A program made the translations under genes and the position numbers. The notes below the pieces were generated by a model, which saw only the letters and a list, made by a program, of their open reading frames with translations, did no database searches and was not told where the DNA came from. A stretch of DNA of 64,000 nt from a virus (Duplodnaviria > Caudoviricetes). Location: IMG/VR virus record IMGVR_UViG_3300007171_000004, positions 224,001 through 288,000 of that record; one strand, 5' to 3'. Position 1 is the first letter of the stretch, and the number at the start of each line of letters is the position of its first letter. Positions 16,613-63,651 of the stretch are shown here, one piece after another.

Positions 16613-17558
16613 CTGACAATGCTATTACATCTTCTTCAATGTTATTTTCTTTGCCATATTCTTTAATAAGTTGAATAGGATCATTAATAAGATTGAATTT
16701 CTTCATATCAATTTCAGAGAGCTTGCGAATATAAGCACTATTAGATTTGATTTCCTTTTTCTTAGTCTCTTTAGCTGAAAAATTAAAAATCATCTCTGCT
16801 GGTAAAGAACTTTCAAGCTTATGATATTCGACATTATAGATAGTACCCTCAAGATCATAAACAACAGATACTACATTAATATCCCTGCAAATAATTTCAG
16901 GTTGCATAGCGTATCTACCAACACTACCCGGATTTATAAACTGAACTCCATCTTCTCGCTTTTGTTGCATAGGAGAATGAATATGTCCACTTAAAACCAA
17001 TTTAGTTGATGGATGAAACTTAGTGTCCTTAAAAATTACACCCTCAAAATCTCTTGCTGGAACTGTCATTAAAGAAGCATGTAAAGCAAGGATAGGATAA
17101 TTTACGTTTTGAAGTTTACCAGCACGAATATCAGCATCAAGTTTAGGATAAAAATGTCCCAAATAGATTCCTAGATGATCTATGCTTTCACAATACTCCA
17201 ATAATCCGCTTGAAAACAATGTATTTAAACTAGACATTGGAAGATTAGACATGTTGTGACCAATATCATGATTGCCAATAACTGCGTAAGATTTAAATGG
17301 CCAAGGTTTACCAGTTTCATCACTTCTTAAAGCATGTAAAAGCTTAGATACAATTGTAGGCTGCACAACTGTTTTATCAAAAATATCTCCAAGAAAAACA
17401 ACAGCATCAACTTTCTGATCCCGCCCAATTTGAAGACACTCTAGAAATTCTTTAGCAGAAGTTTCACAATAATTATCTAATCTTCCCGGAGGTTGCTTTG
17501 ATGCGCAGTGATTATCTCCTACAAATAAAACCTTAAATTTACTCAACTTCTTCTCCAA
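16575..17558 (-). CDS. sbcD: SbcD/Mre11-like metallophosphoesterase nuclease
   Basis: VGDNH, FLGDIFD, IGNHD, LHA, LSGHIH, INPGSVGR motifs. Confidence 0.9.
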   Translation of the reverse strand: MEKKLSKFKVLFVGDNHCASKQPPGRLDNYCETSAKEFLECLQIGRDQKVDAVVFLGDIFDKTVVQPTIVSKLLHALRSDETGKPWPFKSYAVIGNHDIGHNMSNLPMSSLNTLFSSGLLEYCESIDHLGIYLGHFYPKLDADIRAGKLQNVNYPILALHASLMTVPARDFEGVIFKDTKFHPSTKLVLSGHIHSPMQQKREDGVQFINPGSVGRYAMQPEIICRDINVVSVVYDLEGTIYNVEYHKLESSLPAEMIFNFSAKETKKKEIKSNSAYIRKLSEIDMKKFNLINDPIQLIKEYGKENNIEEDVIALSVDRMRDTIYSQE

Positions 17559-30470: not shown

Positions 30471-32291
<1,821 letters not shown>

Positions 32292-33789: not shown

Positions 33790-33820
33790 AAAAAAGGGGA
33801 GATTCATTCTCCCCTTTTTT
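33790..33820. terminator. Bidirectional intrinsic terminator
   Basis: AAAAAAGGGGAGA-TTCAT-TCTCCCCTTTTTT between convergent genes. Confidence 0.8.
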
Positions 33821-35147
33821 ATAATCCATAACGGGATTTTGTTAAGTTGTAATAAGCTAGAATTTCTGATGATGATAAAGCTCGGTTATAAATTCTTAAT
33901 TGCGATATGTTTCCTGCAAAAGTTTCTGAAATGTAACTATTACCGCCAACAAAAACATTATTTGTTGTGACTGGATTCGAATTTAAACTTGAAAGATTTT
34001 CAGTTGTAGAAGAATTATTTAGACTAAATGTTATTACTGGATTTGAAATTGTACCAGATACACTTATAGCTGCAAAATTCCATGTATTATTTGTTATAGA
34101 ACCCAAATTTTTATTTTGATAACTTCCAGCAGATAAACTAGTATAATAAGTTACTATATTATTATCAACTCTAAATAGAGAAATCAAATATCCTCCACCA
34201 GTACTAGAATAATTTGCATATAGTGTTGAATATTGTTTTGTTGAAGTTTGATAAAACCAACAAATTATAGTAACATTTATTTGAAGAGTTCTTAAATATG
34301 TATTGTTACCTAGACTTATATAATCATTTGTTCCATCAAAAACCCATGTTCCGCCGTTGCTTGAACTAAAAGATACACCGTTTGTTAAAGCTCCATTATT
34401 ATTATAAATTGAAAGATCATTTGCTAAAGTCGAAGAGGGCTCACTAAAACTATAAGGATTACCAGCATCTAGAACTAGTACAGCAGAATCGTTAGAGAAT
34501 GGGTAGCTATAAGTTACTTGTTTAAAATGAAGAAGATTTGTGGAAGATATAAATTTCTCTACAACGCCAACAATTAAAATTTCTTGAGCAATGGAATTAA
34601 CATTAACTTTAACCAATTTTCCAGCATTGACACCAGAACCGAAAGTGAGTAAATCTCCAGAATTAAAATCTATTTGTGTAGTGTAATCTAAACCATAATC
34701 ACCATGCAAAACTCTAACAAACTGATCTGTAATGAAAATATTGTTAGGTTGATTATAAACAGCCAATCCTCTACGTGAAATAACCATGTTTTCTGATGGA
34801 TTATAGGGCTTATTCAAAGATTCATTAAGATTATCATTCAAAGCTCTTTTTGTTGTTAAAACTTCATTATTTTCAGTGCGTATAAAACTGTAAGAGCTAT
34901 CAATATAACTTGAACCAATAACATCTGGAACTATTATTGTGTTTGCAGCAGAAGAATGATCAGATGTAGCAAAACCTAAGAACTTTCCAATTTTTTGAGA
35001 TAATGTTTTTTGGAATATTAAAGAATTATCAGCTTTAACCACTCTTCCATTATCATCTCTCATAAGTGCCATTCCAGCTTTAAAATCAACATCAACAAAG
35101 ATATCAACATTTTCTACTGCATTTGAAGTTACTGTAAAGATTGCCAT
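33819..35147 (-). CDS. LamG/concanavalin A-like lectin-domain virion protein, paralog 5
   Basis: Conserved ~210-aa N-domain plus LDAGNP...FDGTNDY...WNFAAIS...F.GNISQLRIYNRALS. Confidence 0.85.
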   Translation of the reverse strand: MAIFTVTSNAVENVDIFVDVDFKAGMALMRDDNGRVVKADNSLIFQKTLSQKIGKFLGFATSDHSSAANTIIVPDVIGSSYIDSSYSFIRTENNEVLTTKRALNDNLNESLNKPYNPSENMVISRRGLAVYNQPNNIFITDQFVRVLHGDYGLDYTTQIDFNSGDLLTFGSGVNAGKLVKVNVNSIAQEILIVGVVEKFISSTNLLHFKQVTYSYPFSNDSAVLVLDAGNPYSFSEPSSTLANDLSIYNNNGALTNGVSFSSSNGGTWVFDGTNDYISLGNNTYLRTLQINVTIICWFYQTSTKQYSTLYANYSSTGGGYLISLFRVDNNIVTYYTSLSAGSYQNKNLGSITNNTWNFAAISVSGTISNPVITFSLNNSSTTENLSSLNSNPVTTNNVFVGGNSYISETFAGNISQLRIYNRALSSSEILAYYNLTKSRYGL

Positions 35148-36445
35148 TATAAACCATACCTAGATTTTGTTAAGTTGTAATATGCCGAAATTTGATCGAG
35201 TGTAAGAGCCGTAAAGTAAATTCTCATTTCAGATAAATACATTCGAGCGTAAGAATGCGGGCTTGTTTTAACACTTCTAGCACCAATTCCAAGATCTTCA
35301 TTGTTTGAACCCATATCCCCAGTAGTTGCAACTATATTTGTCAAAGAGTTATTTATATAAGCCTTTTGATTTGTTTTATCATATGTTACAGTAATTAGTT
35401 TCCAAGCTGAAGAATCCATAGGCGCAATACTTCTCCATTGCCAAGCTGGAAGATAAGCATAATCGAATGAATTACTATAATATCCAGTTTCATATATATT
35501 TTCTTTATTTAGGATAATATTTCCACCTAAAGAATCAGTAGGAAATCCATCAATTTTCACCCATGTCATTGTAGTAAGTTGTCTTGTTCCTGGATTTAAG
35601 CTTGGGCTGTCTAAGACTCTTATGTAATCATTTGTTCCATCAAAATAAAAAGAACCGCCTCCAAAACTACTATAAGATACTCCATTATATAAAACTCCAT
35701 TGTTATTATTTGGGGTTAAATCATATACAGTGTTTCCAGAAATGTATGAATAAGGATTTGCAGCATCTATGGCAAATTGTAAGTTATTAGATTGAAATGT
35801 TACTAAATATGGGGCCTGTCTAAAATGAAGAAGATTAGAAGTTGAGATAAATTTTTCTACAATGCCAACAATTAAAACATCTGGGCCAATAGAATTCACA
35901 TTTATCTTTACAAGTTTTCCAGCATTTATTCCAGATCCAAAAGTTAGCAAATCTCCAGCATTAAAATCTATTTGTGCTGTTGAGTCTACTCCAAAATCTC
36001 CATGTAATACTCTTGAAAATTGATCCGTTATGAAGATGTTGTTTGGTTGATTGTATACTGCTAATCCTCTTCTAGATGTTGTTAATGTTTCTGAAGGATT
36101 ATAGATTTTGATGTTAGTTTCATCTTGGTTATCATTTAAGGCTCTTTTTGCTAATATTACTTCATTATTTTCAGTTCTAATATAATTGTAAGAATTGTCA
36201 ATATAACTAGATCCAATTATATCTGGAACAATGATTGTATTTGAAGCTGAGGAATGATCACTGGAAGCAAAACCCAAGAACTTGCCGATTTTTTGTTCAT
36301 TTGTTTTATAGAGTAGTAAACTATTATCAGCAGGAACAGCTCTACCGTTATCATCTCTCATTAACGCCATACCAGACTTGAAAGATGATGAATAGAATAT
36401 ATCTACATTTAATACTTCGTTAGATGTTACGGTGAAAATAGCCAT
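35147..36445 (-). CDS. LamG lectin-domain virion protein, paralog 4
   Basis: Same N-domain; IDAANP...FDGTNDY...WKLITVTYD...MRIYFTALT. Confidence 0.85.
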   Translation of the reverse strand: MAIFTVTSNEVLNVDIFYSSSFKSGMALMRDDNGRAVPADNSLLLYKTNEQKIGKFLGFASSDHSSASNTIIVPDIIGSSYIDNSYNYIRTENNEVILAKRALNDNQDETNIKIYNPSETLTTSRRGLAVYNQPNNIFITDQFSRVLHGDFGVDSTAQIDFNAGDLLTFGSGINAGKLVKINVNSIGPDVLIVGIVEKFISTSNLLHFRQAPYLVTFQSNNLQFAIDAANPYSYISGNTVYDLTPNNNNGVLYNGVSYSSFGGGSFYFDGTNDYIRVLDSPSLNPGTRQLTTMTWVKIDGFPTDSLGGNIILNKENIYETGYYSNSFDYAYLPAWQWRSIAPMDSSAWKLITVTYDKTNQKAYINNSLTNIVATTGDMGSNNEDLGIGARSVKTSPHSYARMYLSEMRIYFTALTLDQISAYYNLTKSRYGL

Positions 36446-37734
36446 TATAAACCATATCGGGATTTGTTAAGGTTGTATTGATTTAAAACTTCTTGAGATG
36501 ATAATACTTTAGTATAAATTTTTAAGTATCCAAAAGAAGATCTTGTTCTTTCATTATTAAATTGATTCGTAGCAGATGCTAAAGCGAACGCTGTCAGTGT
36601 ATTATTTACTAATGATGAAGAATAAATGGAGACTCCATTTACAAAAATTTGATGTGCTGCAGCATTTTTTACCAATGTAATATGCGTATATTGTCCCAAT
36701 AATAAAGTGTATGATGTATTGATCCAACCTGATCCTTGCACATATAAATGTATATTATTTAAAGGATAAACTCCACCTGTCCCAAGAGCTATGATTGCTG
36801 AATTTCCGTCTCCATCAAATATCCTGTTAAGTGCTAGTTGCCCAGTAAGTTGATATACATTTACAAACATTTCTAAAGTATAATTAGAAATAGAAAATCC
36901 AGAAGAAGAACTAGAGTCATCAGCACCATCAAAAACAATTTCACCATTATAAGCGCTTGTATATGAGACTCCATTCAAAAGAGTCATATTGTAGTTATTT
37001 GAAGCTAAATTATACCAAGTACTCCCTGTTTTTGGATATGATAAGAGATTAGCAGCATCATAGTTTAATAAAGTAAAATTTCCAAAGCTTAAGCTAAAAC
37101 TTACTTGTCTAAAATGTAATAGATTTGTTGATGATACATATTTTTCAACAATACCCACAATCAATAATTCAGGGCCAAAAGAATTAACATTTACCTTAAC
37201 AAGTTTCCCGGCATTAACTCCACCACCAAAAGTAAGTAAATCACCAGGGTTTAATGCAACAGTGTCTAATCCATCAAGGCCATAATCTCCATGTAAAACA
37301 GGCTTAAATTGATCTGTTATGAAGATATTATTAGGTTGGTTATATACTGCAAGGCCACGTCTCGAAATTATATTTTTATCAGATGGATTATATAAATTTG
37401 GAATTCCCTCATTTAAATTATCAACTAGCCCTCTCTTAGAAATTACAACCTCATTATTTTCAGTTCTTATGTAGTTGTAAGAATTATCAATATAACTTGA
37501 TCCAATGACATCTGGAATAATTATAGTGTTTGAATAAGCTGAATGATCGCTTGTTGCAAAACCTAAGAATTTACCAACTTTTTGTTCGAGAGTTTTAAAT
37601 ACTAACAATTGACTATCTGCTGGAACTCCTCTACCATTATCATCCCTCATTAAAGCCATACCAGCCTTAAATGATGTAGAAATCATGATGTCTACATTTT
37701 CAACAGCATTAGAAGTTACAGTAAATATAGCCAT
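36445..37734 (-). CDS. LamG lectin-domain virion protein, paralog 3
   Basis: Same N-domain; YDAAN..SYP..GSTWYNL...FDGADD...YTHITLV...LKIYTKVLS. Confidence 0.85.
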   Translation of the reverse strand: MAIFTVTSNAVENVDIMISTSFKAGMALMRDDNGRGVPADSQLLVFKTLEQKVGKFLGFATSDHSAYSNTIIIPDVIGSSYIDNSYNYIRTENNEVVISKRGLVDNLNEGIPNLYNPSDKNIISRRGLAVYNQPNNIFITDQFKPVLHGDYGLDGLDTVALNPGDLLTFGGGVNAGKLVKVNVNSFGPELLIVGIVEKYVSSTNLLHFRQVSFSLSFGNFTLLNYDAANLLSYPKTGSTWYNLASNNYNMTLLNGVSYTSAYNGEIVFDGADDSSSSSGFSISNYTLEMFVNVYQLTGQLALNRIFDGDGNSAIIALGTGGVYPLNNIHLYVQGSGWINTSYTLLLGQYTHITLVKNAAAHQIFVNGVSIYSSSLVNNTLTAFALASATNQFNNERTRSSFGYLKIYTKVLSSQEVLNQYNLNKSRYGL

Positions 37735-39044
37735 TAAGATACAAGCCTTGGATAAATAGCATTATGATTTCTTTGAGCTTGTTCTGCTGTAAATCCAGTG
37801 TTATAGAATCTTACTGCAGCGATTTTTCCAGCTGTTTGCCAAGATGCCCATACAGTAATTTGAATTTCATGAGTATTTGTATAGTTATTTGGGTTATATA
37901 TAGAATCATCAAAAATACCATTAATATAAGATGTCATTACGCCAGCAGTTCTTGTAAATATGATAGAATACCAAGTGTTAATATATACAGGTCTTTTTCC
38001 TCTTAAGAAAATTCCACTTGGTGTTGTCAGTGGGTTCCAGAAAATCGGATTACCTGCGAACCATGATCCAATTACCCAAGAGTTTCCAGAAGGTACGCCA
38101 CCAGTATTTGCCTTAGCTAAAATACCAGTAAGAAAACCCTCTAATGCATAAAAAACAATTTCAACTGTAAAATCTCCTGAAAAATCCATAATTGCATTGT
38201 GTGGAATTGTCAAACGGTCATCAATTGTATCAAGAACAATTACTCCCCCGTTTTCAGCCGACCAAAAAGCTCCATTATTCATAGAACCATTTAAGTTATT
38301 TCCACTCAAGTCATACCAAGTTGTGCCAGTTCCAGGATAAGATACTGGACTGGAAGCATCTAAATTCAAATAAAGCCCTGTTGTAGCAATCGAAACTGTA
38401 TTACTATAAGTTTCTAAAATATGCCTAAAATAAAGAACTTTTGAGGCAGAATCATGCTTTTCTACAGAGCCTATAATAATTACTGAAGGACCATTGCCAG
38501 ATAAATCAGCTTTTACTAATTTACCAGCATTAACACCAGCTCCAAATGTTAAAAGATCTCCTGGAGAAAGAATTACATCTACATTTGAATCTTCTGCAAC
38601 AGCCATGGCTAATTTTGTTGCAAATTGGTCTGTGATATAAATTTCTCCTTGGAGATTATATACGCCAGTACCCCTTATGGTTTCTGGATTGTTATTGGAT
38701 ATTTGATAAAAATTATTTACATTCTCATCTCTGTAATCTAAAATAGATCTTTTAGGAGCAGCATAAGGAGCATTTGTATTATCGTAAAATGCTGAATCAA
38801 TATTGTAATTACTGCCTACTGGATCGTTATTAATAATTGTGCTAGTAGTTGAGTGATCATTAGAAGAAAATCCAATAAATTTGCTTCTTTGTTCTGCTAA
38901 GCTATCAAAACTGAAAGAAGCTCTATCAGCTAAAACAGCTCGTCCATTATTATCAAACATAAGAGCAGAACCAGCTTTAAAGTCAGTTGAAATTGACACT
39001 GGAATATTTACTACGTACTTATTGAAAAGAGGAAAGATTGCCAT
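37734..39044 (-). CDS. LamG lectin-domain virion protein, paralog 2
   Basis: MAIFPL subtype N-domain; LDASSP.SYPGTGTTWYDLSGN...WYSIIFTR...VRFYN. Confidence 0.85.
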   Translation of the reverse strand: MAIFPLFNKYVVNIPVSISTDFKAGSALMFDNNGRAVLADRASFSFDSLAEQRSKFIGFSSNDHSTTSTIINNDPVGSNYNIDSAFYDNTNAPYAAPKRSILDYRDENVNNFYQISNNNPETIRGTGVYNLQGEIYITDQFATKLAMAVAEDSNVDVILSPGDLLTFGAGVNAGKLVKADLSGNGPSVIIIGSVEKHDSASKVLYFRHILETYSNTVSIATTGLYLNLDASSPVSYPGTGTTWYDLSGNNLNGSMNNGAFWSAENGGVIVLDTIDDRLTIPHNAIMDFSGDFTVEIVFYALEGFLTGILAKANTGGVPSGNSWVIGSWFAGNPIFWNPLTTPSGIFLRGKRPVYINTWYSIIFTRTAGVMTSYINGIFDDSIYNPNNYTNTHEIQITVWASWQTAGKIAAVRFYNTGFTAEQAQRNHNAIYPRLVS

Positions 39045-40342
39045 TAAATTAATTTACCCATACTTGCATTATAATTTTGTCTTACTTGTTCTGCTGTCAT
39101 ACCTTGGGAATATAAGCGTACAAATGGAGTTTTCAATTTTGACCATAAACCATAAGAGTCCCAAGATCCAATAACAAAACCAGTGGAAGTATTTAAGCTT
39201 AAACTGTTATTAAAAGAAAATCTCAAAGTACCATTATAATAACAATTGATAACACCACTATTACGAGTTACAATTACATGGTTATACTTAGTAAAAGAAT
39301 TTTCTCCACCCCATTGATCTAAAGCTGGGGGATACCAAGATCCACTATATCTGATTAAAAACCACATAGAATTGCCACCAGTTGCAGACAATACCCAGTT
39401 AGCCTCTGCGTCTGAACTTCTTCTATGTAACCAACCTCCGCCTCCAACTTGTTTAATCAATGCTCCTTCAATGGTAAAATCTCCAGGAAAATCTAATAGT
39501 GAATTATCTGCTACAAGGGCTTGGTCATTAGTCCCGTCAAATGTCATTACACCACCATTTTCGCTTGACCAAAGTACACCATTCTGGAGTTCAGCATTCA
39601 ATCCATTACCACTCAAATCATACCAAGTAGTTCCTGACCCTGAATATGATGTAGGATTGCTTGCGTCTAAATGAACTGTGATACCTGTTGTAAATAACGA
39701 CACTGTATTATTGTAACTTTCTAATACATGTCTAAAATACAATAAATTACTGGCTGCATCAAACTTCTCAACTACTCCAATAATCAATACAGAAGGACTA
39801 ATAGCTGAAGTATCTGCCTTTACTAATTTTCCAGCATTGATTCCAGCTCCATAAGTAAGTAAATCACCAACATTAAAATCTACTTGAGCTGTACCATCAG
39901 AATCAATAAATAAACTTGCAACTCTTGAAAATTGGTCTGTAATATAAATTTCGCCTTGAAGATTGTAAATTCCAATGCCTCTTTTAGAATATTCGGAAAA
40001 TAATACTCCAGAAACTGATTCGTCTCTAAATTCATAAATAGATCTTTTACTTGCAGAATAATGAGAATTAACATTATCTACAAATTTATTATCAGATGAA
40101 ATATAATTACTGCCTACAGGATCAGACATTAAAATAGAAGATAAATTAGTGTGATCTCCTGAAGCAAAACCTAGAAATTTACCAGATCCTTCAACGATTG
40201 AATTATAACTAATATTACTTCTGTCCGCTTTAACAGCATTACCATTTGAATCAATAACAAGCGCCATACCAGAAGTAAAGCTCTCATTAGCAATTACTGG
40301 GAAATTTACTGCATGTTTATTATATAGAGGAAAAATTGCCAT
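39044..40342 (-). CDS. LamG lectin-domain virion protein, paralog 1
   Basis: MAIFPL subtype N-domain; LDASNP.SYSGSGTTWYDLSGN...FDGTND...NHVIVTR...VRLY. Confidence 0.85.
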   Translation of the reverse strand: MAIFPLYNKHAVNFPVIANESFTSGMALVIDSNGNAVKADRSNISYNSIVEGSGKFLGFASGDHTNLSSILMSDPVGSNYISSDNKFVDNVNSHYSASKRSIYEFRDESVSGVLFSEYSKRGIGIYNLQGEIYITDQFSRVASLFIDSDGTAQVDFNVGDLLTYGAGINAGKLVKADTSAISPSVLIIGVVEKFDAASNLLYFRHVLESYNNTVSLFTTGITVHLDASNPTSYSGSGTTWYDLSGNGLNAELQNGVLWSSENGGVMTFDGTNDQALVADNSLLDFPGDFTIEGALIKQVGGGGWLHRRSSDAEANWVLSATGGNSMWFLIRYSGSWYPPALDQWGGENSFTKYNHVIVTRNSGVINCYYNGTLRFSFNNSLSLNTSTGFVIGSWDSYGLWSKLKTPFVRLYSQGMTAEQVRQNYNASMGKLI

Positions 40343-44176: not shown

Positions 44177-45145
44177 TTATCTTACTGGAAAACCAGCCTG
44201 GTCTAGAATCTGTTGTCCTGTTGGGTAATAACTCTTACCCCAGAGGAAGTTGTTTGGATTAATAGTTGCTTCAAAACGATGAAACTTTGCATGTCCATCA
44301 GCAAATACATAATTAGAACCACCTGTATGACGACCTGGCTCCATGAACCGAATATGCAGTCCGCCATCAGCTGCAACGGATCTACATCCACCAGTACCAT
44401 TTTGTGCACTAGAATCAGATGGTCCACCCCAGCCCTCAGCTCCTTCTGCAGCAGCCTTAGTAATAGCAAAGATTGATCCTGACGCATCCGCAAAACTTTG
44501 TCCTGCCCATTGACCGCCAGAAACTGTACGCATTATGGCATTTGTTGGTCGGTGAGACTTGTTTCTTCGTTCAGTATTGAGTTGGCCAGTTGAACCTAAA
44601 AAGATACAATTTAAGTGATTAGTTGCTTCTGCAATGGCAATAACATCAGCTGGAGCATCAATTGCAGCGATAGGAACAACGTTTGGAGCATCTTGAGGGC
44701 CACGCTTACGAGGAAGAACAGCCGAATTAGGAACATAGGAAAGACGAGGAACCTGAGCTTCGCATCCAAGGGTATTTACATCTGTCCAAGGCATACAAGG
44801 AGGATTGTCTGGACCTACTCCACCGTTCTTATCAGATGGACATACCCAAACTTTGTCACTCTTGATATATGGCTGTACCATTGCAGAATAATGAATATAT
44901 CCACCAGCTGATCCGCCATTAGTCGTTGCGGTGTTGTTCTTGTACATGTATGCAGTCGGATAGGTTTCATCATAATCCTGAGTGTACATCATAAGACCAA
45001 TTCCAATTTGCTTCTCATTCGACAAACAACTTGCCGATCGGGCCTTCTCACGAGCCTGGGCAAACACTGGGAAGAGGATAGCTGCCAAAATCGCAATAAT
45101 AGCAATGACAACTAAGAGTTCAATTAAAGTAAAAGCTTTTTTCAT
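44177..45145 (-). CDS. Prepilin-type N-terminal cleavage/methylation protein with DUF1559 and H-X9-DG C-terminal motif
   Basis: [42 protein letters not shown]...MYTQDYDE; C-terminal [16 protein letters not shown]. Confidence 0.93.
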
Positions 45146-49817: not shown

Positions 49818-50327
49818 ATGTGGTACAAAAAAGCAATTCTTCTTACAGATATTGAAATCGAAATGGAACTTCTTCATAATGCAAAAACCACTGAAGATAT
49901 ACATAAGAATTACAGAAATCTATCTAAAAGACACCACCCTGATGTAAATCCTGATCCAGACTCTACTAAAAATTTTCAAAACATTCAAAATATTTATGAT
50001 GAAGTGAAAGATCAACCACTCTACTCAACTGAAGATTTTACAAGCAGAGAAATGACAGAAGATGATGTTAGAGATAATATAGAACTTCAAGATAATTTTC
50101 TAAATACAGATGAAGAAGCACTTAAAATGGGCATACTTCAATCTGTAGAAACATACTTCAATAATAATGTTCCAGATAATTATGACACACCTGATTTTGA
50201 AATGTATGAATCTTTAACCGAACAAATTTATAATCAAGTTAAAGATATTCAGCCAACACCATATGAAACAATTGCAAATCTAATTAATAATATGGCTGGA
50301 AACTACATTAGAGAAAATTATAGCTAA
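49818..50327 (+). CDS. MWYK-leader J-domain (DnaJ type III) protein
   Basis: EDIHKNYRNLSKRHHPDVNP...FQNIQNIYDEV with intact HPD (49935-49943). Confidence 0.85.
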   Translation: MWYKKAILLTDIEIEMELLHNAKTTEDIHKNYRNLSKRHHPDVNPDPDSTKNFQNIQNIYDEVKDQPLYSTEDFTSREMTEDDVRDNIELQDNFLNTDEEALKMGILQSVETYFNNNVPDNYDTPDFEMYESLTEQIYNQVKDIQPTPYETIANLINNMAGNYIRENYS

Positions 50328-58028: not shown

Positions 58029-58072
58029 TAAAGGAGTTACACATGAAACACAAACAGAAACAGGTTTTGAAA

Positions 58073-58346
58073 TGTGGTTGGCTGGAGTTCAACCAGTACG
58101 GAACACAAGGGCAGTTCTTTCGATGGTCTCTGCCTCCGATGGTATTCTTGTCTCATATGAGAGCATAATACCCAACCACATATTATATGCCTTGACATAA
58201 CTGTTTGCGTCAGTCCCTGCCAAGGACAGTAAGAACTTGTGGCTTTTTGACCACCCCAAGGTTGCTACCCTTATTTGAATCTCGCAATAGATTCTAGCCG
58301 TTCTGGATTCTTACTGGTTGAGGGAGGTTCTAGACTCCATCCCTAC
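58073..58346 (-). ncRNA. Candidate structured ncRNA (~275 nt) with tRNA-like 3' domain
   Basis: No ORF of 60 aa or more; own sigma70-type promoter and terminator; many hairpins including 9-bp CAGTAAGAA/TTCTTACTG, 10-bp ATGTGGTTGG/CCAACCACAT, T-arm-like CTGG-TTGAACT-CCAG and a GAAA tetraloop. Confidence 0.6.
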
Positions 58347-58352
58347 ACCAAT

Positions 58353-58381
58353 ATATTACGCCATCTCTAAGTAATCTGCAA
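58353..58381 (-). promoter_or_regulatory. Sigma70-type promoter for the candidate ncRNA
   Basis: TTGCAG-N17-TAATAT. Confidence 0.6.
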
Positions 58382-58403: not shown

Positions 58404-58459
58404 GTTATTTGGATCATTCTGTCGGGGGGTTAACCCCCCGAGGACTTGTTTTAAATAAT
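58404..58459. repeat. Symmetric element copy 1
   Basis: GTTATTT-N12-CGGGGGGTTAACCCCCCG(58423-58440)-N12-AAATAAT. Confidence 0.95.
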
Positions 58460-58480
58460 ATTTTTTAGTATAGAATTTGC

Positions 58481-58515
58481 AAAAAAAATCCCCTTCAAGA
58501 TTTAACAAGAAGGGG
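58481..58515 (-). terminator. Intrinsic terminator
   Basis: CCCCTTC...GAAGGGG with A8 run on the plus strand. Confidence 0.7.
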
Positions 58516-58540
58516 TTGGAGGTGAACACCACATTCACAG

Positions 58541-58990
58541 TTATAGTTTACAGGCAATATCTTCTGTTGTCAAGGTGTATTCTGGAAGAAATTCCTTAAC
58601 AAGTTTCCATCCATCTTTTTCGTAAACATTGTAAACTTGCCAGACATTATTAACATACAGATAAAAGTAATCTACACTGGAAGAATATATGTTGTGTAAT
58701 TCATCCATTGAGGTAATTACAGCATCTACGCCATCTTCCCCACGGTCTCTGTTATAGAATACTGTTACACCCTCTTCTGGGTTATCAAAAGTATGTTCAC
58801 CTTCAGGATGTAATTCAGATGTAAGATAACTCATATCACCAAAACTAAGCAATTCATTGATGCTATCTACTGTATTGTAATTTGCAACCAGAGTTTGACC
58901 TACACCATCAGGATATCCATCAAAGTGACAATAAGAATGCTTGATTGTTCCATCATAAAGCATAATACCGATTCTAGCGTGAGTTGACAT
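58541..58990 (-). CDS. Conserved-type phage hypothetical protein (YCHxDGYP motif)
   Basis: MSTHARIGI..DG....YCHFDGYPDGVG..L; SD AAGGAG. Confidence 0.85.
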   Translation of the reverse strand: MSTHARIGIMLYDGTIKHSYCHFDGYPDGVGQTLVANYNTVDSINELLSFGDMSYLTSELHPEGEHTFDNPEEGVTVFYNRDRGEDGVDAVITSMDELHNIYSSSVDYFYLYVNNVWQVYNVYEKDGWKLVKEFLPEYTLTTEDIACKL

Positions 58991-59027
58991 ATTTATCTCC
59001 TTGGATTAAGTATATCACAATTTAAAT

Positions 59028-59348
59028 TTACAGAATGATATATTTAAATTGCTCTTTGCCTTGCCATGCCCGTGAAAGTCCTGCCAATGTCATCCAAACT
59101 AAAGACAAGAAACTAACACCACAGACACAACCTACAAATGTCATAGTATTGTGAATGTTGCCAATCAAAATGTATTCAATCAAACAAGCAATTGGCATTA
59201 CACAAGCAACAGCAAATGATAATAGTACAGAGTATTCAAGCATATTATGAAACACTTTTGGCATATGCTTTGTAATCTGCCAAAATGCGACAAAACCGCC
59301 TGTGTAAAGAAAAACCTGCATTGTTCTATTAATAATCTCTTCGTTCAT
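59028..59348 (-). CDS. Membrane protein with about three TM segments
   Basis: Three hydrophobic stretches; coupled to the upstream gene. Confidence 0.7.
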   Translation of the reverse strand: MNEEIINRTMQVFLYTGGFVAFWQITKHMPKVFHNMLEYSVLLSFAVACVMPIACLIEYILIGNIHNTMTFVGCVCGVSFLSLVWMTLAGLSRAWQGKEQFKYIIL

Positions 59349-59566
59349 CCTGCTATCTCCCATTGTTCAGAAAGTATATCTTCTGCTGTAAACCTATAAC
59401 AAGCCCAGAAACTCATTTCTTCTCCAGTAGACCAAATACATTTAAATCTTAGTTTTGATTCTTCCATCTTAACTAAAATAACAGTAGTGGATTTTGGATT
59501 CCATTTCTTGCTTCTGGTGATTGTTTTACCATCACGCATAAAGGGCAATACTTGTTCAAGTTTCAT
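59345..59566 (-). CDS. Small phage protein (DUF2829-like)
   Basis: MKLEQVL..MRDGK.ITR..W...EDILSEQWEI pattern. Confidence 0.65.
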   Translation of the reverse strand: MKLEQVLPFMRDGKTITRSKKWNPKSTTVILVKMEESKLRFKCIWSTGEEMSFWACYRFTAEDILSEQWEIAG

Positions 59567-59572
59567 ACACCT

Positions 59573-59600
59573 ATATTATCATAAAATATTACTGCGTCAA
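59573..59600 (-). promoter_or_regulatory. Sigma70-type promoter
   Basis: TTGACG-N16-TAATAT with TG just upstream of the -10. Confidence 0.65.
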
Positions 59601-59611
59601 GGATAAAAAAC

Positions 59612-59667
59612 ATTATTTGTTTCCACCTGTCGGGGGGTTAACCCCCCGAAGACTGGAGTTAAATAAT
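59612..59667. repeat. Symmetric element copy 2 (between divergent promoters)
   Basis: ATTATTT-N12-CGGGGGGTTAACCCCCCG(59631-59648)-N12-AAATAAT. Confidence 0.95.
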
Positions 59668-59678
59668 AAAAAAAAGAT

Positions 59679-59706
59679 TTGCATCATATATTATTTTTGA
59701 TATAAT
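59679..59706 (+). promoter_or_regulatory. Sigma70-type promoter with extended -10
   Basis: TTGCAT-N16-TATAAT, TGaTATAAT. Confidence 0.7.
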
Positions 59707-59766
59707 GTATGCATCGTTGAGGTTTAGAACCCTCCTGCGGGGTGAATCGCAGGGCTGGAGGCTGAT

Positions 59767-60147
59767 ATGCGTAACTTGTATGACAAGATGTGTTGCTGGT
59801 GCAAGGGTCACGTTCGTGCGGGCGAGGGTCAGGCTTGGAACTATCGTGGGCGATGGTATGCGGGATGCCCTACCTGCCTTGAGGAGCGTAAAGGTTCTAA
59901 GGCTAAGGCGGATATTCGCATTGAGTATCCATGCGTGATGGCAACGTCCAGTACCAATGTATACGGCGTGTTCAAGTATGACACATACCCTGCAAGTTCG
60001 GTTCTGGCAGGTGCGGAACGGCGTACGTGGCTTGATGAGTTTGCAACGCTTGAGGAGGCTATTAAGGCTTACCCTAAGGCAACCAAGCACTGTGGTCCCG
60101 GCTACCATGAAGACAACTACGAGTGGCTCTCTGAGGAGGAGGACTAA
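59767..60147 (+). CDS. GC-rich hypothetical protein with CxxC...CxxC zinc-ribbon-like N-terminus
   Basis: SD GGAGG; CCWC...CPTC; 30/60 and 37/60 G+C in 59761-59880. Confidence 0.8.
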   Translation: MRNLYDKMCCWCKGHVRAGEGQAWNYRGRWYAGCPTCLEERKGSKAKADIRIEYPCVMATSSTNVYGVFKYDTYPASSVLAGAERRTWLDEFATLEEAIKAYPKATKHCGPGYHEDNYEWLSEEED

Positions 60148-60153
60148 AGCCTT

Positions 60154-60178
60154 GACCCCTTCGGGGGTCTTTTTTTTT
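60154..60178 (+). terminator. Intrinsic terminator with cUUCGg loop
   Basis: GACCCC-TTCG-GGGGTC-T9. Confidence 0.9.
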
Positions 60179-60199
60179 ATCTATAGCAATCTAAAATTT

Positions 60200-60257
60200 A
60201 TTATTTAACTCAAGTCTTCGGGGGGTTAACCCCCCCCGACAGAAAGATACAAATAAT
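60200..60257. repeat. Symmetric element copy 3 (inverted flanks, two extra C)
   Basis: ATTATTT-N12-CGGGGGGTTAACCCCCCCCG(60219-60238)-N12-AAATAAT. Confidence 0.93.
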
Positions 60258-60268
60258 AAAAAATAGTC

Positions 60269-60296
60269 TTGCATCAGTTATTATTTTTGATATAAT
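60269..60296 (+). promoter_or_regulatory. Sigma70-type promoter with extended -10
   Basis: TTGCAT-N16-TATAAT, nearly identical to 59679-59706. Confidence 0.7.
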
Positions 60297-60316
60297 AAGA
60301 GCATAAGGAGTTTGGA

Positions 60317-60589
60317 ATGAAAGTTAACTTGAAAGAGTATGGTCTCTGTGACGTTGTAAAGAACGAGTATCCTAACGGTAATCTCGCATTGTCCCTCAAG
60401 GATGCGTACGGTTCTCCAATCGCTAGCGTTAGCACAAACATCATCCCCCTGTTCGACAATGAGTTTGTTCTTGATGTAAACAACCTGTCTCTTATCCTTG
60501 ATGAGATTCTTGAATCCGGGTTGTTTCAGGACACGGGAGACAAGGTGCAATCAGGGTTTGTAGAATATCCAATCTACAGGTTGGTATAA
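60317..60589 (+). CDS. DUF4313-like protein
   Basis: YPNGNLAL.L.....PIA.VSTN.....FVLDVNN...DTG..VQSGFVEYPIY; SD AAGGAG. Confidence 0.7.
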   Translation: MKVNLKEYGLCDVVKNEYPNGNLALSLKDAYGSPIASVSTNIIPLFDNEFVLDVNNLSLILDEILESGLFQDTGDKVQSGFVEYPIYRLV

Positions 60590-60590
60590 G

Positions 60591-60622
60591 ATAGGGGGCT
60601 TGAAAAAGCCCCCTATTGTTTT
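60591..60622 (+). terminator. Intrinsic terminator
   Basis: ATAGGGGGCT-TGAAAA-AGCCCCCTAT then TGTTTT. Confidence 0.7.
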
Positions 60623-60685
60623 ATCTAGGCTTGCTAAAAAACCTTATTTGAAAAAAGTTGTCGTATAAGATATTTGAGGTGAAAA

Positions 60686-61072
60686 ATGGAACAAGCTGTA
60701 ATGATTGGTTTGGTATCGGTTTTATTTTGTTTCAATGTCTGGTTAATTGGTGCAAATGAATCAATCAAGAATCAAAATGAAACTCTAAAGAATCTTAACA
60801 ACAATTTGAATAAAGATTTAGAAGAATTAAAGAGTAAAAATTCTTCTCTTTGGCATGAAACATTAGAATTAAAAGAACACATTGAATCTTATAAATTTCC
60901 TGTAGGTTCTAAGGTTAAGTGGTTAGATCGCACAGGAGAAGAAGAATTTGGAATTGTCTATGATGATTATGAGATTCTAGATAAGCATTATGTTGTTATT
61001 AAAAGATTGAAAGATGACAAATTAATTGGCTCTCCACTTTCAATTAAGGCAGAAAAATTAACAGTATTATAA
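60686..61072 (+). CDS. Membrane-anchored coiled-coil protein with SH3-like C-terminus
   Basis: SD GAGGTG; N-terminal TM, heptad region, FPVGSKVKW...GIV. Confidence 0.75.
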   Translation: MEQAVMIGLVSVLFCFNVWLIGANESIKNQNETLKNLNNNLNKDLEELKSKNSSLWHETLELKEHIESYKFPVGSKVKWLDRTGEEEFGIVYDDYEILDKHYVVIKRLKDDKLIGSPLSIKAEKLTVL

Positions 61073-61109
61073 AAAAAAATCCCCCTTGAATAATCTTGGG
61101 GGATAACTT

Positions 61110-61313
61110 TTACTTTACGGAATATTGGGTATAAAATCTGCTACCGTCATTTAATACCCATTCTGTTTTATATTTCCTAGCACACGTTTCACCTAACTCT
61201 TGTGCATTAGACCCAGAAGCCAAAAGCAATCCATTCCTAAACGCAGAAAACTTAAGTCTAGGAAAGTTAGTTACAAAACGAACCTCAATCTTATCTTGCA
61301 AATCCATGTCCAT
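61110..61313 (-). CDS. Small hypothetical protein
   Basis: SD AAGGAG; terminator at about 61073-61105. Confidence 0.7.
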   Translation of the reverse strand: MDMDLQDKIEVRFVTNFPRLKFSAFRNGLLLASGSNAQELGETCARKYKTEWVLNDGSRFYTQYSVK

Positions 61314-61340
61314 CTCCTTACAAAAATAGTATATCAGAAA

Positions 61341-61838
61341 TCATTTAAGAGTCAAGAGTTTACTGCTTAAATAAGGGTCATTTTTAAATCTTTTTAGCCC
61401 CATCTTTGTATATCCCAATGCATTTAATCTATCACCATTTTTAATACAAAGACTAACAAGAGAGTGAAAAGTAGTGGCGGGACAATCTTTAAAACGGATA
61501 GCACTTTCATAATAACGGATTGATAATTGTTCATCTTTCTTCATCGACCTATAAAACATACCAGTAAATTCATAAGACCTATATCCATTAGGCATTAGGG
61601 ACAAATATCTCTTAGTAAAAATTTCAGCATCATTTAACCAGCTTGAATCTTTACTATTAATACTCATAGACCACATAAGCCAAATCATATTCTCCCAAGC
61701 ATCACGGTCTTTGTAATCTATCTTAAGCACTTCTTTGTATAGATTAATAATTTTGGGATAGTCACCAGTTTTAGTATCTGTGCCATGCCAAAGAGTTTCA
61801 ATAGTTTTCTTTAAATATTCTAGTTTACGAGTTTGCAC
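61341..61838 (-). CDS. TPR-like helical repeat protein
   Basis: GDYPKIINLY..VL..D.....AW...IWLMWS; ..YYESAIRF; helical repeats. Confidence 0.6.
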   Translation of the reverse strand: MQTRKLEYLKKTIETLWHGTDTKTGDYPKIINLYKEVLKIDYKDRDAWENMIWLMWSMSINSKDSSWLNDAEIFTKRYLSLMPNGYRSYEFTGMFYRSMKKDEQLSIRYYESAIRFKDCPATTFHSLVSLCIKNGDRLNALGYTKMGLKRFKNDPYLSSKLLTLK

Positions 61839-62160
61839 TTGCTTCTAACTCCAATTCTTCTGCATCATAAGTATTTAAAATATGATTACTAACATTCTGC
61901 GGTAATTCTACATTCTTCATAAAACCTAAAAGAATAATTTTCTTCTTAAAATTTTCGTAAACAGTTTTTCTTTTACGTTGAGAATTATCCCACTCATATG
62001 TAAATAAATTCATATCATTTAAAATTGAAGAGTGACTAAATTCAATAAGATAAGTACCATCCATATGAATAAAAGAATCAAAACCGGAAATTATATCATC
62101 TCCCTTTAATTCATATCCTGTGCCAGTTTTAGAAAAATATATCCAGACTTTTGTTTCCAT
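61825..62160 (-). CDS. Hypothetical protein (possibly leaderless transcript)
   Basis: ATG 62160 lies 5 nt below the -10 box TAAAAT; no SD. Confidence 0.7.
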   Translation of the reverse strand: METKVWIYFSKTGTGYELKGDDIISGFDSFIHMDGTYLIEFSHSSILNDMNLFTYEWDNSQRKRKTVYENFKKKIILLGFMKNVELPQNVSNHILNTYDAEELELEASANS

Positions 62161-62165
62161 GTCAA

Positions 62166-62194
62166 ATTTTACCATATATATTTAATGTCTGCAA
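62166..62194 (-). promoter_or_regulatory. Sigma70-type promoter
   Basis: TTGCAG-N17-TAAAAT, with TG before the -10. Confidence 0.6.
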
Positions 62195-62207
62195 TTATCT
62201 AAAAAAG

Positions 62208-62263
62208 ATTATTTGAAACATTCTGTCGGGGGGTTAACCCCCCGAGGACTTGAAACAAATAAT
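62208..62263. repeat. Symmetric element copy 4
   Basis: ATTATTT-N12-CGGGGGGTTAACCCCCCG(62227-62244)-N12-AAATAAT. Confidence 0.95.
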
Positions 62264-62284
62264 AAAAAATAGTTCATCTGAGAC

Positions 62285-62312
62285 AAAAAAAGACCCCGTT
62301 TCAGGGGTCTTT
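62285..62312 (-). terminator. Intrinsic terminator
   Basis: A7-GACCCC-GTTTCA-GGGGTC. Confidence 0.8.
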
Positions 62313-62315
62313 AGA

Positions 62316-62576
62316 TTACAGTTCGATATTGATGTAAGATACACCGATTAAGTTATGGATAGAATATTCTTTCCAGTTCTTAAGAAGGGTCTCTGCAAAC
62401 TCATGTCCTTCCAGAGCCTTTTTGATAGCATCTGAGAACTTGTTCGTCCTTACCAGAGTATAAGTGGTTTTATCATCACCGTATGTAAACTCATCAAGGA
62501 CATCGTTGCAAACATCTGTGTCAAGTTCCAGAGTGTAAAAGATGTCTGATGCATCTGCGAATGTTACCTGTCTCAT
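62316..62576 (-). CDS. Small hypothetical protein
   Basis: SD AAGGAGGT; flanked by its own promoter and terminator. Confidence 0.8.
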   Translation of the reverse strand: MRQVTFADASDIFYTLELDTDVCNDVLDEFTYGDDKTTYTLVRTNKFSDAIKKALEGHEFAETLLKNWKEYSIHNLIGVSYINIEL

Positions 62577-62600
62577 GTCAACCTCCTTGGTTACAGGTTA

Positions 62601-62628
62601 ATAATATCATAAATGATTTGTGATGCAA
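62601..62628 (-). promoter_or_regulatory. Sigma70-type promoter
   Basis: TTGCAT-N16-TATTAT, TGaTATTAT. Confidence 0.65.
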
Positions 62629-62650
62629 TGGGTATTTTAAACTATTTTTT

Positions 62651-62706
62651 ATTATTTAAATCATTCCTTCGGGGGGTTAACCCCCCGACGACTGGAAACA
62701 AATAAT
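62651..62706. repeat. Symmetric element copy 5
   Basis: ATTATTT-N12-CGGGGGGTTAACCCCCCG(62670-62687)-N12-AAATAAT. Confidence 0.95.
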
Positions 62707-62727
62707 AAATTTTAGATTGACAAAAGC

Positions 62728-62757
62728 AAAAAAAAGCCCCCGTTTCAGGGGGGGCTT
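62728..62757 (-). terminator. Intrinsic terminator homologous to 62285-62312
   Basis: A8-GCCCCC-GTTTCA(G)-GGGGGGC. Confidence 0.75.
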
Positions 62758-62758
62758 G

Positions 62759-63478
62759 CTACGCCATCGGCAGAATCTTTAATGCCTTTTTAATCTTTTT
62801 ATCTGTTCCAGTATCAGGGGCGAACAGAATCACAAGTTTACGGCGGTGGAGGTGCTTATCCTGCATACAAAGCCCGCAGGACTTGCAAGAGTCGGTTTTC
62901 TTGACCTGATAGGGACAAGGGATACCAGTAAAGCCGTTTCCAAGGTTCACAGGGCGATGTGATTCGTGTTTAGTAGGAACGACCAGACTACAGGCATAAC
63001 CACGGTCATGCTCTACTTGTAACTGTTCCACGGATTCGCACGAACGCAGAATACTAACATCGCCCCAAACATTACGGGGAACATCCAATGCATGGGTGTA
63101 TGTCCAAACCCGTTTGCCGGAACGCTTTATATAAGCATTATACGCTTCTGATACAATCCGGGCGGCTTCCACGGTTTTACAATCACCGACAACATGACCC
63201 CGCAGGTCATACTTGCCTTTAAGACGGTTCACGGCATCCGCTTCAAAACGGGCTATCTGTTCCGGTGTAAACATTCCAATGGACTGTGCTAGGTTCAATC
63301 GTTTTGTTGTAATACCTGCATGACCTGTTTCGGCATAACATCCTGCATTATAGAAGGAACAGTTAGATGGGCATGAACCTTGACTTGCCCAAGTAGCGGA
63401 CACCGTTTTGTCGGTGGAAAGTTTACGGTCGGCAGACCGCTCTACGGCAATGGCTGGGGCTGTGTATGTGTAACTCAT
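62759..63478 (-). CDS. Cysteine-rich phage protein (Gp88-like)
   Basis: SCPSNCSF...GCYA..G, R.HVVGD, WTYTH, C-terminal CP......CKSCGLC; GC-rich codons. Confidence 0.55.
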   Translation of the reverse strand: MSYTYTAPAIAVERSADRKLSTDKTVSATWASQGSCPSNCSFYNAGCYAETGHAGITTKRLNLAQSIGMFTPEQIARFEADAVNRLKGKYDLRGHVVGDCKTVEAARIVSEAYNAYIKRSGKRVWTYTHALDVPRNVWGDVSILRSCESVEQLQVEHDRGYACSLVVPTKHESHRPVNLGNGFTGIPCPYQVKKTDSCKSCGLCMQDKHLHRRKLVILFAPDTGTDKKIKKALKILPMA

Positions 63479-63484
63479 GACATC

Positions 63485-63512
63485 ATTATATCGACATTAT
63501 ATAAAAATACAA
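63485..63512 (-). promoter_or_regulatory. Sigma70-type promoter
   Basis: TTGTAT-N16-TATAAT. Confidence 0.65.
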
Positions 63513-63533
63513 TGGCATTTTGAACTATTTTTT

Positions 63534-63589
63534 ATTATTTAAAACATTCCTTCGGGGGGTTAACCCCCCGACGACTGGAAACAAATAAT
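63534..63589. repeat. Symmetric element copy 6
   Basis: ATTATTT-N12-CGGGGGGTTAACCCCCCG(63553-63570)-N12-AAATAAT. Confidence 0.95.
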
Positions 63590-63651
63590 GTTTTTCAGAT
63601 TGACAAATGCCAAAAAATGCCCCCCATTTCTGGAGGGCTGGTTGGTTGATT

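Follow-up and report, generated by a model that had tools for sequence, protein, structure and literature searches.

A lineage-specific junction module that resembles the promoter/stem-loop elements of T4-like phages in an uncultured freshwater phage

Introduction

Promoter-early stem-loops (PeSLs) are modules of the T4-like phages RB49/phi1, T4/PST, and KVP40/nt-1 (Arbiol et al., 2010, PMC2839356; Comeau et al., 2014, PMC4122927). In each, a sigma-70-type promoter is combined with an AT-rich tract upstream of it and with a stem-loop, in many cases polyG-polyC. Exchange between neighboring copies to give mini-circles is another trait in the description of PeSLs. PeSLs are found in hyperplastic regions, at places where close relatives differ by insertions or deletions, and "half" PeSLs retain only the -35 box. 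The stem-loop is a terminator whose position relative to the promoter varies (there are five subclasses, and it is mostly within or overlapping the promoter), and the authors suspected that a protein recognizes GGGG...CCCC (PMC2839356, PMC4122927). Here, we describe a repeated element that lies at the junctions of small gene cassettes in a 64,000-nucleotide stretch of phage DNA (the window). The window corresponds to bases 34399-98398 of a 129,429-bp IMG/VR virus record, and "genome" coordinates are positions in that record. The element has a core with a run of G and a run of C, flanked on both sides by AT arms. It probably works by the same principle as PeSLs, although its phage is unrelated to the T4-like phages and its architecture differs and is much more rigid.

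The likeness to PeSLs extends to several features. The copies are repeated intergenic modules in a region that is rich in small genes, both ORFan and accessory; the promoters are of the sigma-70 type and follow AT-rich tracts; the stem-loop pairs a G run with a C run; and there are degraded copies with only the -35 box as well as sites at insertions, deletions, or replacements between close relatives (seen in L093, L094, and L099, each a single contig). There are also clear differences. The present phage falls outside the T4-like group, as its polymerase is of the DnaE type and reaches no more than 35% identity to any phage of the collection searched. Its stem-loop lacks a U tract, separate terminators are present, and the core has a fixed upstream place. 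Invariant arms stand on both sides of the core at an invariant 13 nt. Finally, the element is a directional pseudo-palindrome that is able to serve promoters on both sides.

The source is an uncultured jumbo phage from fresh water, with a probable genome size of ~350 kb. Its replicative polymerase is of the DnaE type (with PHP, Pol III alpha, and finger domains), and the nearest phage records by DnaE are 31-35% identical. By the same protein, no close relative is present in IMG/VR; the nearest that we found is a 316-kb record of an uncultured virus. The region itself had no megablast match among 50,697 phage records. Its DNA is present in drinking-water, reservoir, lake, and estuary metagenomes (11 studies).

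Results and Discussion

Nine copies of the element lie in one 8-kb array

The window contains six copies of the 18-nt core CGGGGGGTTAACCCCCCG, at 58423, 59631, 60219, 62227, 62670, and 63553, just as a preliminary description of this DNA had listed. The core at 60219 has one mismatch, which is due to two additional C. No core occurred in 100 shuffled windows. Three further copies lie past the end of the window (genome 98888, 99343, and 100884), for a total of nine in 129,429 bases, and all of them are inside genome 92.8-100.9 kb (8 kb). There is no other full copy of the core or element elsewhere in the 129-kb record. (The completeness of the record is 36% according to CheckV, so all of our negative results for the 129 kb cover ~36% of the genome.) Comparison with the open reading frames (ORFs) confirmed the claim that all copies are intergenic. 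Also, a survey of repeated 13-mers showed that those of the record cluster in this single region, and it found no second large intergenic repeat family in the 129 kb.

We scanned metagenome contigs for the core plus an arm, which returned 12 related contigs that are 76-96% identical to the genome and carry another 52 copies. The family set that we analyze is hence 61 copies (9 + 52). The names L091, L093, L094, L097, L099, and L103 are labels of single metagenome or virus contigs. From the record and the 12 related contigs we built a profile of the half-element (121 halves, 84 of them unique), with each half read outward from the center.

Reading outward, a half-site consists of half of the loop, C6, GA, 6 variable bases, G, 4 variable bases, AAATAAT, 1 base plus 5 A/T, and TAG. 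In many half-sites, a TTGACA box lies 1-2 bases beyond the TAG. The core with its flanks is TCG6-TTAA-C6GA, or in other words a G6-loop-C6 flanked by TC and GA. In the half-element profile, the single G of the spacer has 1.7 bits of information and AAATAAT has 2 bits at 6 of its 7 positions. The preliminary description gave the size of the element as 56 bp, which was too small: conservation extends to W6-TAG and often to TTGACA, so that the conserved unit is ~74 bp, or ~88 bp if the TTGACA boxes are included (the full range is ~74-90 bp). The conserved blocks are near +6.5, +17, +25, and +36 from the center, or about one helical turn apart, on both sides. (This one-turn periodicity is our reading of the half-element profile.)

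The arm (TTATTT/AAATAA) is 13 nt from the G or C run, or 12 nt plus the flanking C or G, in all 61 copies. (A single apparent deviation was an artefact of the arm look-up.) Thus the spacers are constant in length, as had been reported, but, contrary to that description, they do not vary freely in sequence. Besides the one conserved G, they fall into a promoter-side class X (e.g., aaggaatgtttt) and a terminator-side class Y/Z (e.g., acgactggaaac). Nearly every element joins an X half to a Y/Z half, and both orientations of the element occur. Because of this arrangement, complementarity between the two spacers of one element is low: they form 3.87 Watson-Crick pairs, as compared to 6.29 +/- 0.35 for randomly paired halves (2000 of 2000 shuffles were higher). 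As the spacers are less complementary than random pairs, the element is a directional pseudo-palindrome and is not symmetric, contrary to the initial view of it. The same comparison rules out a long perfect hairpin with co-varying spacers.

The arms and core are conserved while the spacers diverge

Between orthologous copies in L094 and the genome, the arms are identical at 112 of 112 positions, and likewise for L099 versus the genome. In contrast, spacer identity is 72% for L094 and 58% for L099, and the next 30 nt are 72% and 57% identical. Across the 61 copies, the G and C runs vary in length from 5 to 8, and the loop is TTAA in 44 copies, TAAA in 9, TTTA in 6, and ATAAA or TTTTA in 1 each. 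One G-to-T change, in a single copy, is uncompensated. There is no case among the 61 copies of a stem pair that was swapped for another Watson-Crick pair, nor of a spacer base that was gained or lost. Such a combination of invariant blocks with diverging stretches of fixed length goes beyond what gene conversion alone would produce and is not needed by a mere RNA hairpin. It points to purifying selection on sequence-specific recognition of both halves, whether or not there is a promoter on that side. Conserved blocks at fixed spacing would fit recognition by a protein.

The core can also form a hairpin with an 8-bp stem that is stable on either strand (-17 kcal/mol as RNA and -9.4 kcal/mol as DNA), and the fold of the whole element has z of about -4.2 to -4.6, chiefly via the AT arms. 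The preliminary description had noted that no U tract follows the core and that separate terminators lie nearby. This was borne out, with copy 1 as a marginal exception (it is the only copy that a terminator scan flags); in the other cores, GA and a purine-rich spacer come directly after the stem. An 8-bp stem is short for spontaneous cruciform extrusion, although AT-rich flanks favor extrusion.

A promoter scan also reported TTAACC-N18-AATAAT (9/12 matches) inside every element, on both strands (at copy 1, window 58430-58459). The loop and arm could make a pair of weak divergent promoters, judging from this match. The loop variants TAAA and TTTA weaken it.

The element is restricted to one lineage. 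The core plus arm had no match in the genomes of 185,579 prokaryote species, so it is a real element of its own and not a repetitive extragenic palindrome or insertion sequence (IS) end of the host. Within IMG/VR, the exact core gave only four unrelated single matches, and the arm plus half-core gave 83 chance matches, none with the architecture of the element. The 316-kb record (88% complete), whose DnaE is 62% identical to this phage's, has zero copies of the core. In the literature, the core sequence turned up nothing but an unrelated oligonucleotide. The element was proposed to be undescribed, and this is correct for the sequence family; for the kind of element it is not, as it is of the published PeSL kind (PMC2839356, PMC4122927).

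The element joins self-contained cassettes

The segments between elements are self-contained cassettes, each with a sigma-70-type promoter, 1-3 small genes, and a canonical hairpin-plus-T terminator (Table 1). The X half always has a downstream gene on its side. On the side of the Y/Z half stands the terminator of the gene before, which leaves the TTGACA box of that half as an orphan. Copy 2 separates diverging cassettes, and here each half contributes a -35 box for which there is a matching -10 box. Overall, 7 element sides in the window have an A/T tract and then a promoter of the form TTGNNN-N16/17-TAnnnT, mostly with an extended TG. Half of the inter-element segments (4 of 8) are foreign in their GC composition (0.47-0.51, versus 0.33 for the genome). 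The cassette genes include those for Tad2-like, DUF4313, DUF7227, and DUF932 proteins, and the remainder belong to no family.

Within the window, the distances from the core to the -35 box that were given previously (30, 30, 30, and 32 nt, or 40-41 nt, with orphan TTGACA boxes at 29 nt) are accurate. Across the family, TTGACA-like boxes (at least 5/6 matches) are 28-30 nt from the core in 33 unique halves, 35-37 nt in 6, and 47-48 nt in 12, and scored promoters are at 28-30, 32, 40, and 60-61 nt. The class at 29-30 nt exists because the box belongs to the conserved half-element, and the class at 40-41 nt is one homologous family that carries an 11-12-nt A-tract insert. As each distance class is one homologous half-module, there are only ~2 independent observations. 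So, the spacing is consistent with helical phasing, which stays undemonstrated, and selection on phasing is not established. For the two distance classes, we compute that the element is centered ~74 and ~85 bp ahead of the start of transcription.

A structured noncoding RNA (ncRNA) of ~285 nt follows immediately on the promoter that adjoins copy 1 (window ~58070-58346, minus strand). The ncRNA is kept in ten other IMG/VR viral contigs, including the 316-kb record, and its consensus fold from the 11 sequences has 81 pairs, of which 23 have compensatory changes. It had no credible match in Rfam, and ARAGORN found no tRNA beside copy 1. In one metatranscriptome, a 215-nt contig on the ncRNA has a depth of 618, as compared to 1-3 for its neighbors, with adapter letters at both ends. 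Since this contig is only ~94% identical, it may come from a relative. In DNA contigs, the depth over the ncRNA is 10-25x the neighboring depth.

Cassettes are reordered, inverted, or lost between lineages

Comparison of the contigs shows cassette reordering, inversion, and loss between lineages, with junctions inside the modules. First, the order in L093 is the DUF932 cassette, the 86-aa cassette, the 104+121-aa cassette, and the 126-aa cassette, inverted. This differs from the genome in both order and orientation, and every junction is at most 76 bp from an element center. Second, L099 (from a 38-kb contig) is without genome 98924-99323, which is the 97-aa cassette, exactly between copies 7 and 8. 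Third, L094 has a 440-bp inversion of the ncRNA unit in which core 1 is split beside the loop, leaving two half-elements. There is no element at the other end of this inversion (genome 92384/5). Fourth, the genome contains solo half-elements at 104128 and 104165, in tandem within 104128-104180 and with no partner half. Their C run is short or missing, and it is followed by G, a 12-nt spacer, AAATAAC/T, W6, and TAG. They seem to be what was left after a core broke. The suspected tie to recombination is thereby upheld, in the form of reordering and inversion in L093, loss between two copies in L099, a break inside the core in L094, and the solo halves. Also, spacer subtypes differ at orthologous junctions.

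Across the region, ~12 of 18 breakpoints are within 100 bp of an element center, and such windows make up 19% of the region (binomial P ~1e-5). An "opposite strands" joint of copies 6 and 8 was not counted; one of its sides is just 39 letters, inside a palindromic repeat.

Other differences at the edges of the array were also seen. A contig from a DNA run (depth 31.5) and a contig from an RNA run each join genome 92412 to 101940, with 21 other letters between them, so some co-occurring genomes may be without the whole 9.5-kb array and all nine elements. Only 28 bp separate the left end of this joint (genome 92412) from the second L094 inversion breakpoint. Just past the array, there are five clustered tRNA genes (genome 101.6-103.4 kb, minus strand), and in L091 and L097, genome 102420-103370 is replaced or lost, with no element at the breakpoints.

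A probable module for joining and exchanging cassettes

The explanation that we favor, and that we consider probable though far from certain, is that the element is a lineage-specific PeSL-like junction module. Its core and arms are probably bound by a protein, and it would supply upstream promoter parts together with portable homology and a fragile site for cassette exchange. More precisely, the module would be the junction of a head-to-tail array of autonomous cassettes (promoter, 1-3 small genes, and terminator) in the accessory region. The Y/Z half would close the upstream cassette and bring its own TTGACA box, and the X half would lead, via the A-tract, into the promoter boxes (-35 and -10) of the cassette that follows. 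A protein would read the conserved blocks along one face of the DNA, which goes beyond the role of a mere RNA hairpin, and the repeated modules, with their fragile GC palindrome, would provide the portable homology. The recombination genes of the phage encode a RecA-like protein and a RecJ-like exonuclease, as well as an SMC/AAA_23 ATPase that adjoins a Metallophos nuclease (an SbcCD or Mre11-Rad50-like pair). We propose that these enzymes could exchange, delete, and invert cassettes while leaving the neighboring transcription undisturbed.

Several observations weigh against this proposal. The enrichment of breakpoints near the elements has a confounder: only intergenic breakpoints would be viable, and most of the intergenic DNA is taken up by the elements. 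Some breakpoints are at gene boundaries that are distant from any element. In L093, the switch points between parental sequences are in a terminator T-run, an AT tract, or a promoter, and not in the core. This fits general homologous recombination between repeated linkers, which would leave the invariant core without a demonstrated role in exchange. The rearrangements in L093 and L094 are each on a single metagenome contig, and assemblers can misjoin at repeats. (We consider misassembly of these contigs unlikely, as the junctions have unique sequences and are flanked by DNA of distinct lineages.) Unlike those of PeSLs, the stem-loop does not look like a terminator, as it lacks a U tract and the cassettes have terminators of their own. 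Finally, no element-binding protein was identified. As for the break in the core of L094 and the solo halves, they look like illegitimate joining at a fragile palindrome.

One candidate for a ParB/KorB-like binder was rejected: a 605-aa protein with a weak match to a "partition" PHROG is an Hsp70. The phage encodes this full-length Hsp70 (821 bits, window 30471-32288) along with a DnaJ-domain protein (window 49818-50327).

A bolder version of the junction module is that the 74-bp unit is the assembly site of a lineage-specific candidate protein. This protein would read the G/C runs, the spacer G, AAATAAT, and TAG of both halves on one face of the DNA, and it would link the insulation or activation of promoters to a targeted process that breaks and rejoins cassettes. 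We put this forward tentatively and with considerable doubt.

Alternative explanations

The most serious alternative, and the main idea of the preliminary description, is that the palindrome is the operator of a dimeric regulator. A phage or host protein that binds ~74 or 85 bp upstream of the start would activate or repress the promoter by contacting RNA polymerase. CAP class I sites, the p4 sites of phi29 (near -82), and KorB operators are upstream activator or architectural sites that act at a distance. Our element is like them in being a palindromic site at a similar kind of position, with spacing classes (29-30 and 40-41 nt from the core) that are one helical turn apart. A dimer would also account for conserved blocks at fixed spacing on both halves, for the lack of compensatory changes in the stem, and for copy 2, which is transcribed by neither of the divergent promoters and yet is kept in all lineages. 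On the other hand, about half of the element sides face a terminator and have no promoter, so many copies are promoterless on one side. Other distances occur (32, 35-37, 47-48, and 60 nt), and the main distance classes, being single homologous modules, amount to ~2 independent data points. The arm-to-arm length varies from 40 to 44 bp via changes in run length, which is awkward for a rigid dimer. Nor did we find a cognate protein or any regulator near the array, and the 316-kb relative has no copy of the element. Furthermore, the orthologous ncRNA promoter is kept in ten related viral contigs without an element upstream, which implies that this type of promoter does not need the element. Control of the promoters by helical phasing, as originally suggested, is therefore not sustained, and we view a dimer operator as possible but less than likely.

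A second alternative is that the element acts at the RNA level. Upon read-through of a terminator, the 8-bp GC hairpin would be a back-up terminator, a roadblock, or a 3' stabilizer, and it would insulate cassettes both ways, a role that has been proposed for the stem-loops of PeSLs. The hairpin is stable on either strand, the fold of the whole element has z of about -4.2 to -4.6, the element is located between a terminator and the next promoter, and the stem is kept while the loop varies. In addition, the stem-loop of an RB49 PeSL terminated as well as rrnB T1 (PMC2839356). But no U tract follows the stem (copy 1 being marginal), and every cassette already has a canonical terminator. No stem pair was replaced in 61 copies despite spacers that are down to 58% identity, the invariant arms 13 nt away are left unexplained, and copy 2 lies between divergent promoters. 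These arguments make a role as an RNA hairpin unlikely.

Third, the core could be the crossover site of a dedicated recombinase, by analogy to attC, loxP, or hix, with cassettes that move as circles. The core is indeed an inverted repeat around a short AT spacer, and accessory arms flank it. Each element combines the end-of-cassette half of one cassette with the start-of-cassette half of another, orthologous junctions have differing spacer subtypes, the L094 inversion breaks in the core, and solo halves are present. Integron attC sites are likewise imperfect palindromes that bound cassettes, with each site a hybrid of two cassette ends. However, a tyrosine (PF00589) or serine (PF00239) recombinase is absent from the 129-kb record, or ~36% of the genome (the controls were positive), and no integrase was found. 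The cassettes have their own promoters and terminators, unlike integron cassettes; there is no R/L box organization and there are no extrahelical bases. The mosaic junctions of L093, in a T-run, AT tract, or promoter, are away from the core. And the second end of the L094 inversion lacks an element, which suggests illegitimate rather than site-specific joining. We consider the suggestion that the element is a recombinase target quite improbable.

Finally, Correia elements, miniature inverted-repeat transposable elements (MITEs), and IS ends are short palindromic repeats with outward -35 boxes that give promoters only where a -10 box follows, and that form a hairpin if transcribed. It is very improbable that our element is such a miniature mobile element (~88 bp, with terminal inverted repeats and outward -35 boxes) that spread in permissive intergenic sites of one lineage and gave hybrid promoters where a -10 box was available: although it is lineage-specific (the relative with the 62% identical DnaE lacks it), multi-copy, and palindromic, and although each of its ends bears a TTGACA box that would be functional only where a -10 box comes after, its copies are confined to cassette junctions in one 8-kb array with no dispersal elsewhere in the 129 kb, orthologous junctions all keep their copy down to 76% identity with no element-only presence/absence polymorphism seen, no transposase was found, and no target-site duplication was recognized (this was not rigorously examined).

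Positions of features and other genes

Positions of the elements, promoters, terminators, and selected genes are given in Table 1. Besides the genes of the cassettes, the window has two features of interest for the nature of the phage. A gene at window 44177-45145 (minus strand, GC 0.44) encodes a prepilin-type N-terminal methylation motif and DUF1559. This combination is typical of Planctomycetota and Verrucomicrobiota, and so the gene is a possible clue to the host. Six paralogous genes stand in tandem at window 33819-40342 (minus strand); their products, of 429-442 aa, weakly match a PHROG of a virion structural protein.

Table 1. Features of the cassette array and recombination genes (positions in the window)
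Feature	Position	Strand	Details
Element copy 1	58404..58459	.	GTTATTT-N12-core-N12-AAATAAT; left X half to ncRNA promoter; right Y/Z half to terminator of 149-aa gene
Element copy 2	59612..59667	.	Left Y, right Z; between divergent promoters, transcribed by neither
Element copy 3	60200..60257	.	C run of 8; left Z to terminator of 126-aa gene; right X-like to DUF4313 gene promoter
Element copy 4	62208..62263	.	Left X to promoter of 116-aa gene; right Y to terminator of 86-aa gene
Element copy 5	62651..62706	.	Left X to promoter of 86-aa gene; right Y with orphan TTGACA to terminator of DUF7227 gene
Element copy 6	63534..63589	.	Left X to promoter of DUF7227 gene; right Y with orphan TTGACA to terminator of next cassette
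Promoter TTGCAG-N17-TAATAT	58353..58381	-	41 nt from core 1; drives structured ncRNA; kept in relatives
Promoter TTGACG-N16-TAATAT + TG	59573..59600	-	30 nt from core 2; drives Tad2-like operon
Promoter (T)TTGCA(T)-N16/17-TATAAT + TG	59678..59706	+	30 nt from core 2; drives 126-aa zinc-ribbon-like gene
Promoter TTGCAT-N16-TATAAT + TG	60269..60296	+	30 nt from core 3; drives DUF4313 gene
Promoter TTGCAG-N17-TAAAAT	62166..62194	-	32 nt from core 4; 116-aa gene
Promoter TTGCAT-N16-TATTAT + TG	62601..62628	-	41 nt from core 5; 86-aa gene
Promoter TTGTAT-N16-TATAAT	63485..63512	-	40 nt from core 6; DUF7227 gene; overlapping alternative promoter listed by scan
Orphan TTGACA	62717..62722	+	29 nt from core 5; no -10 box after it, converging gene's terminator instead
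Orphan TTGACA	63600..63605	+	29 nt from core 6
Orphan -35-like TTGCTA	60184..60189	-	29 nt from core 3
Terminator hairpin + T8, 149-aa gene	58481..58515	-	Adjoins copy 1
Terminator hairpin + T9, 126-aa gene	60154..60178	+	Adjoins copy 3
Terminator, 86-aa gene	62281..62312	-	Adjoins copy 4
Terminator, DUF7227 gene	62726..62757	-	Adjoins copy 5
Terminator, 121-aa gene	63611..63638	-	Adjoins copy 6
Tad2-like (Thoeris anti-defence 2-like) gene, 73 aa	59345..59566	-	PF11195, 33.3 bits, cut-off 25
126-aa gene	59767..60147	+	No family; segment GC 0.51 versus 0.33 for genome
DUF7227 gene, 239 aa	62759..63478	-	Segment GC 0.47
RecA-like gene	2992-4158		Recombination gene set
RecJ-like gene	388-2181		Recombination gene set
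SMC/AAA_23 + Metallophos genes	16575-18840		Recombination gene set

Implications

A different junction module is found in an unrelated freshwater phage contig (L103, 1-9253) that encodes a homologue of the DUF7227 protein. This contig has 15 copies of its own module, which consists of a GC-rich stem-loop, TTTATATTAAAA, 13 variable bases, and then CTATATAGTATG, and which is probably a non-sigma-70 type of promoter. Given this second, different module, lineage-specific junction modules seem common.

The element that we describe extends the principle of promoter/stem-loop cassettes past the T4-like phages to an unrelated family of freshwater jumbo phages. The accessory early regions of phages are the seat of genes for anti-defence and host takeover, here represented by the Tad2-like, DUF932, DUF7227, and DUF4313 genes, and how such genes are exchanged is only partly understood. 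That the phage is uncultured limits immediate tests, but the module is a clean experimental substrate: it is an invariant 74-bp site under purifying selection, with nine copies and with natural variants in the loop, in run length, and as split halves. If a protein does bind the module, this would answer a question that dates from 2010, namely whether exchange of the PeSL type is a targeted process or merely comes along with general recombination. And if the module is an assembly site, then it would amount to a dedicated phage system for cassette exchange without an integron-type integrase, and it would supply the protein that has long been suspected for the stem-loops of PeSLs.

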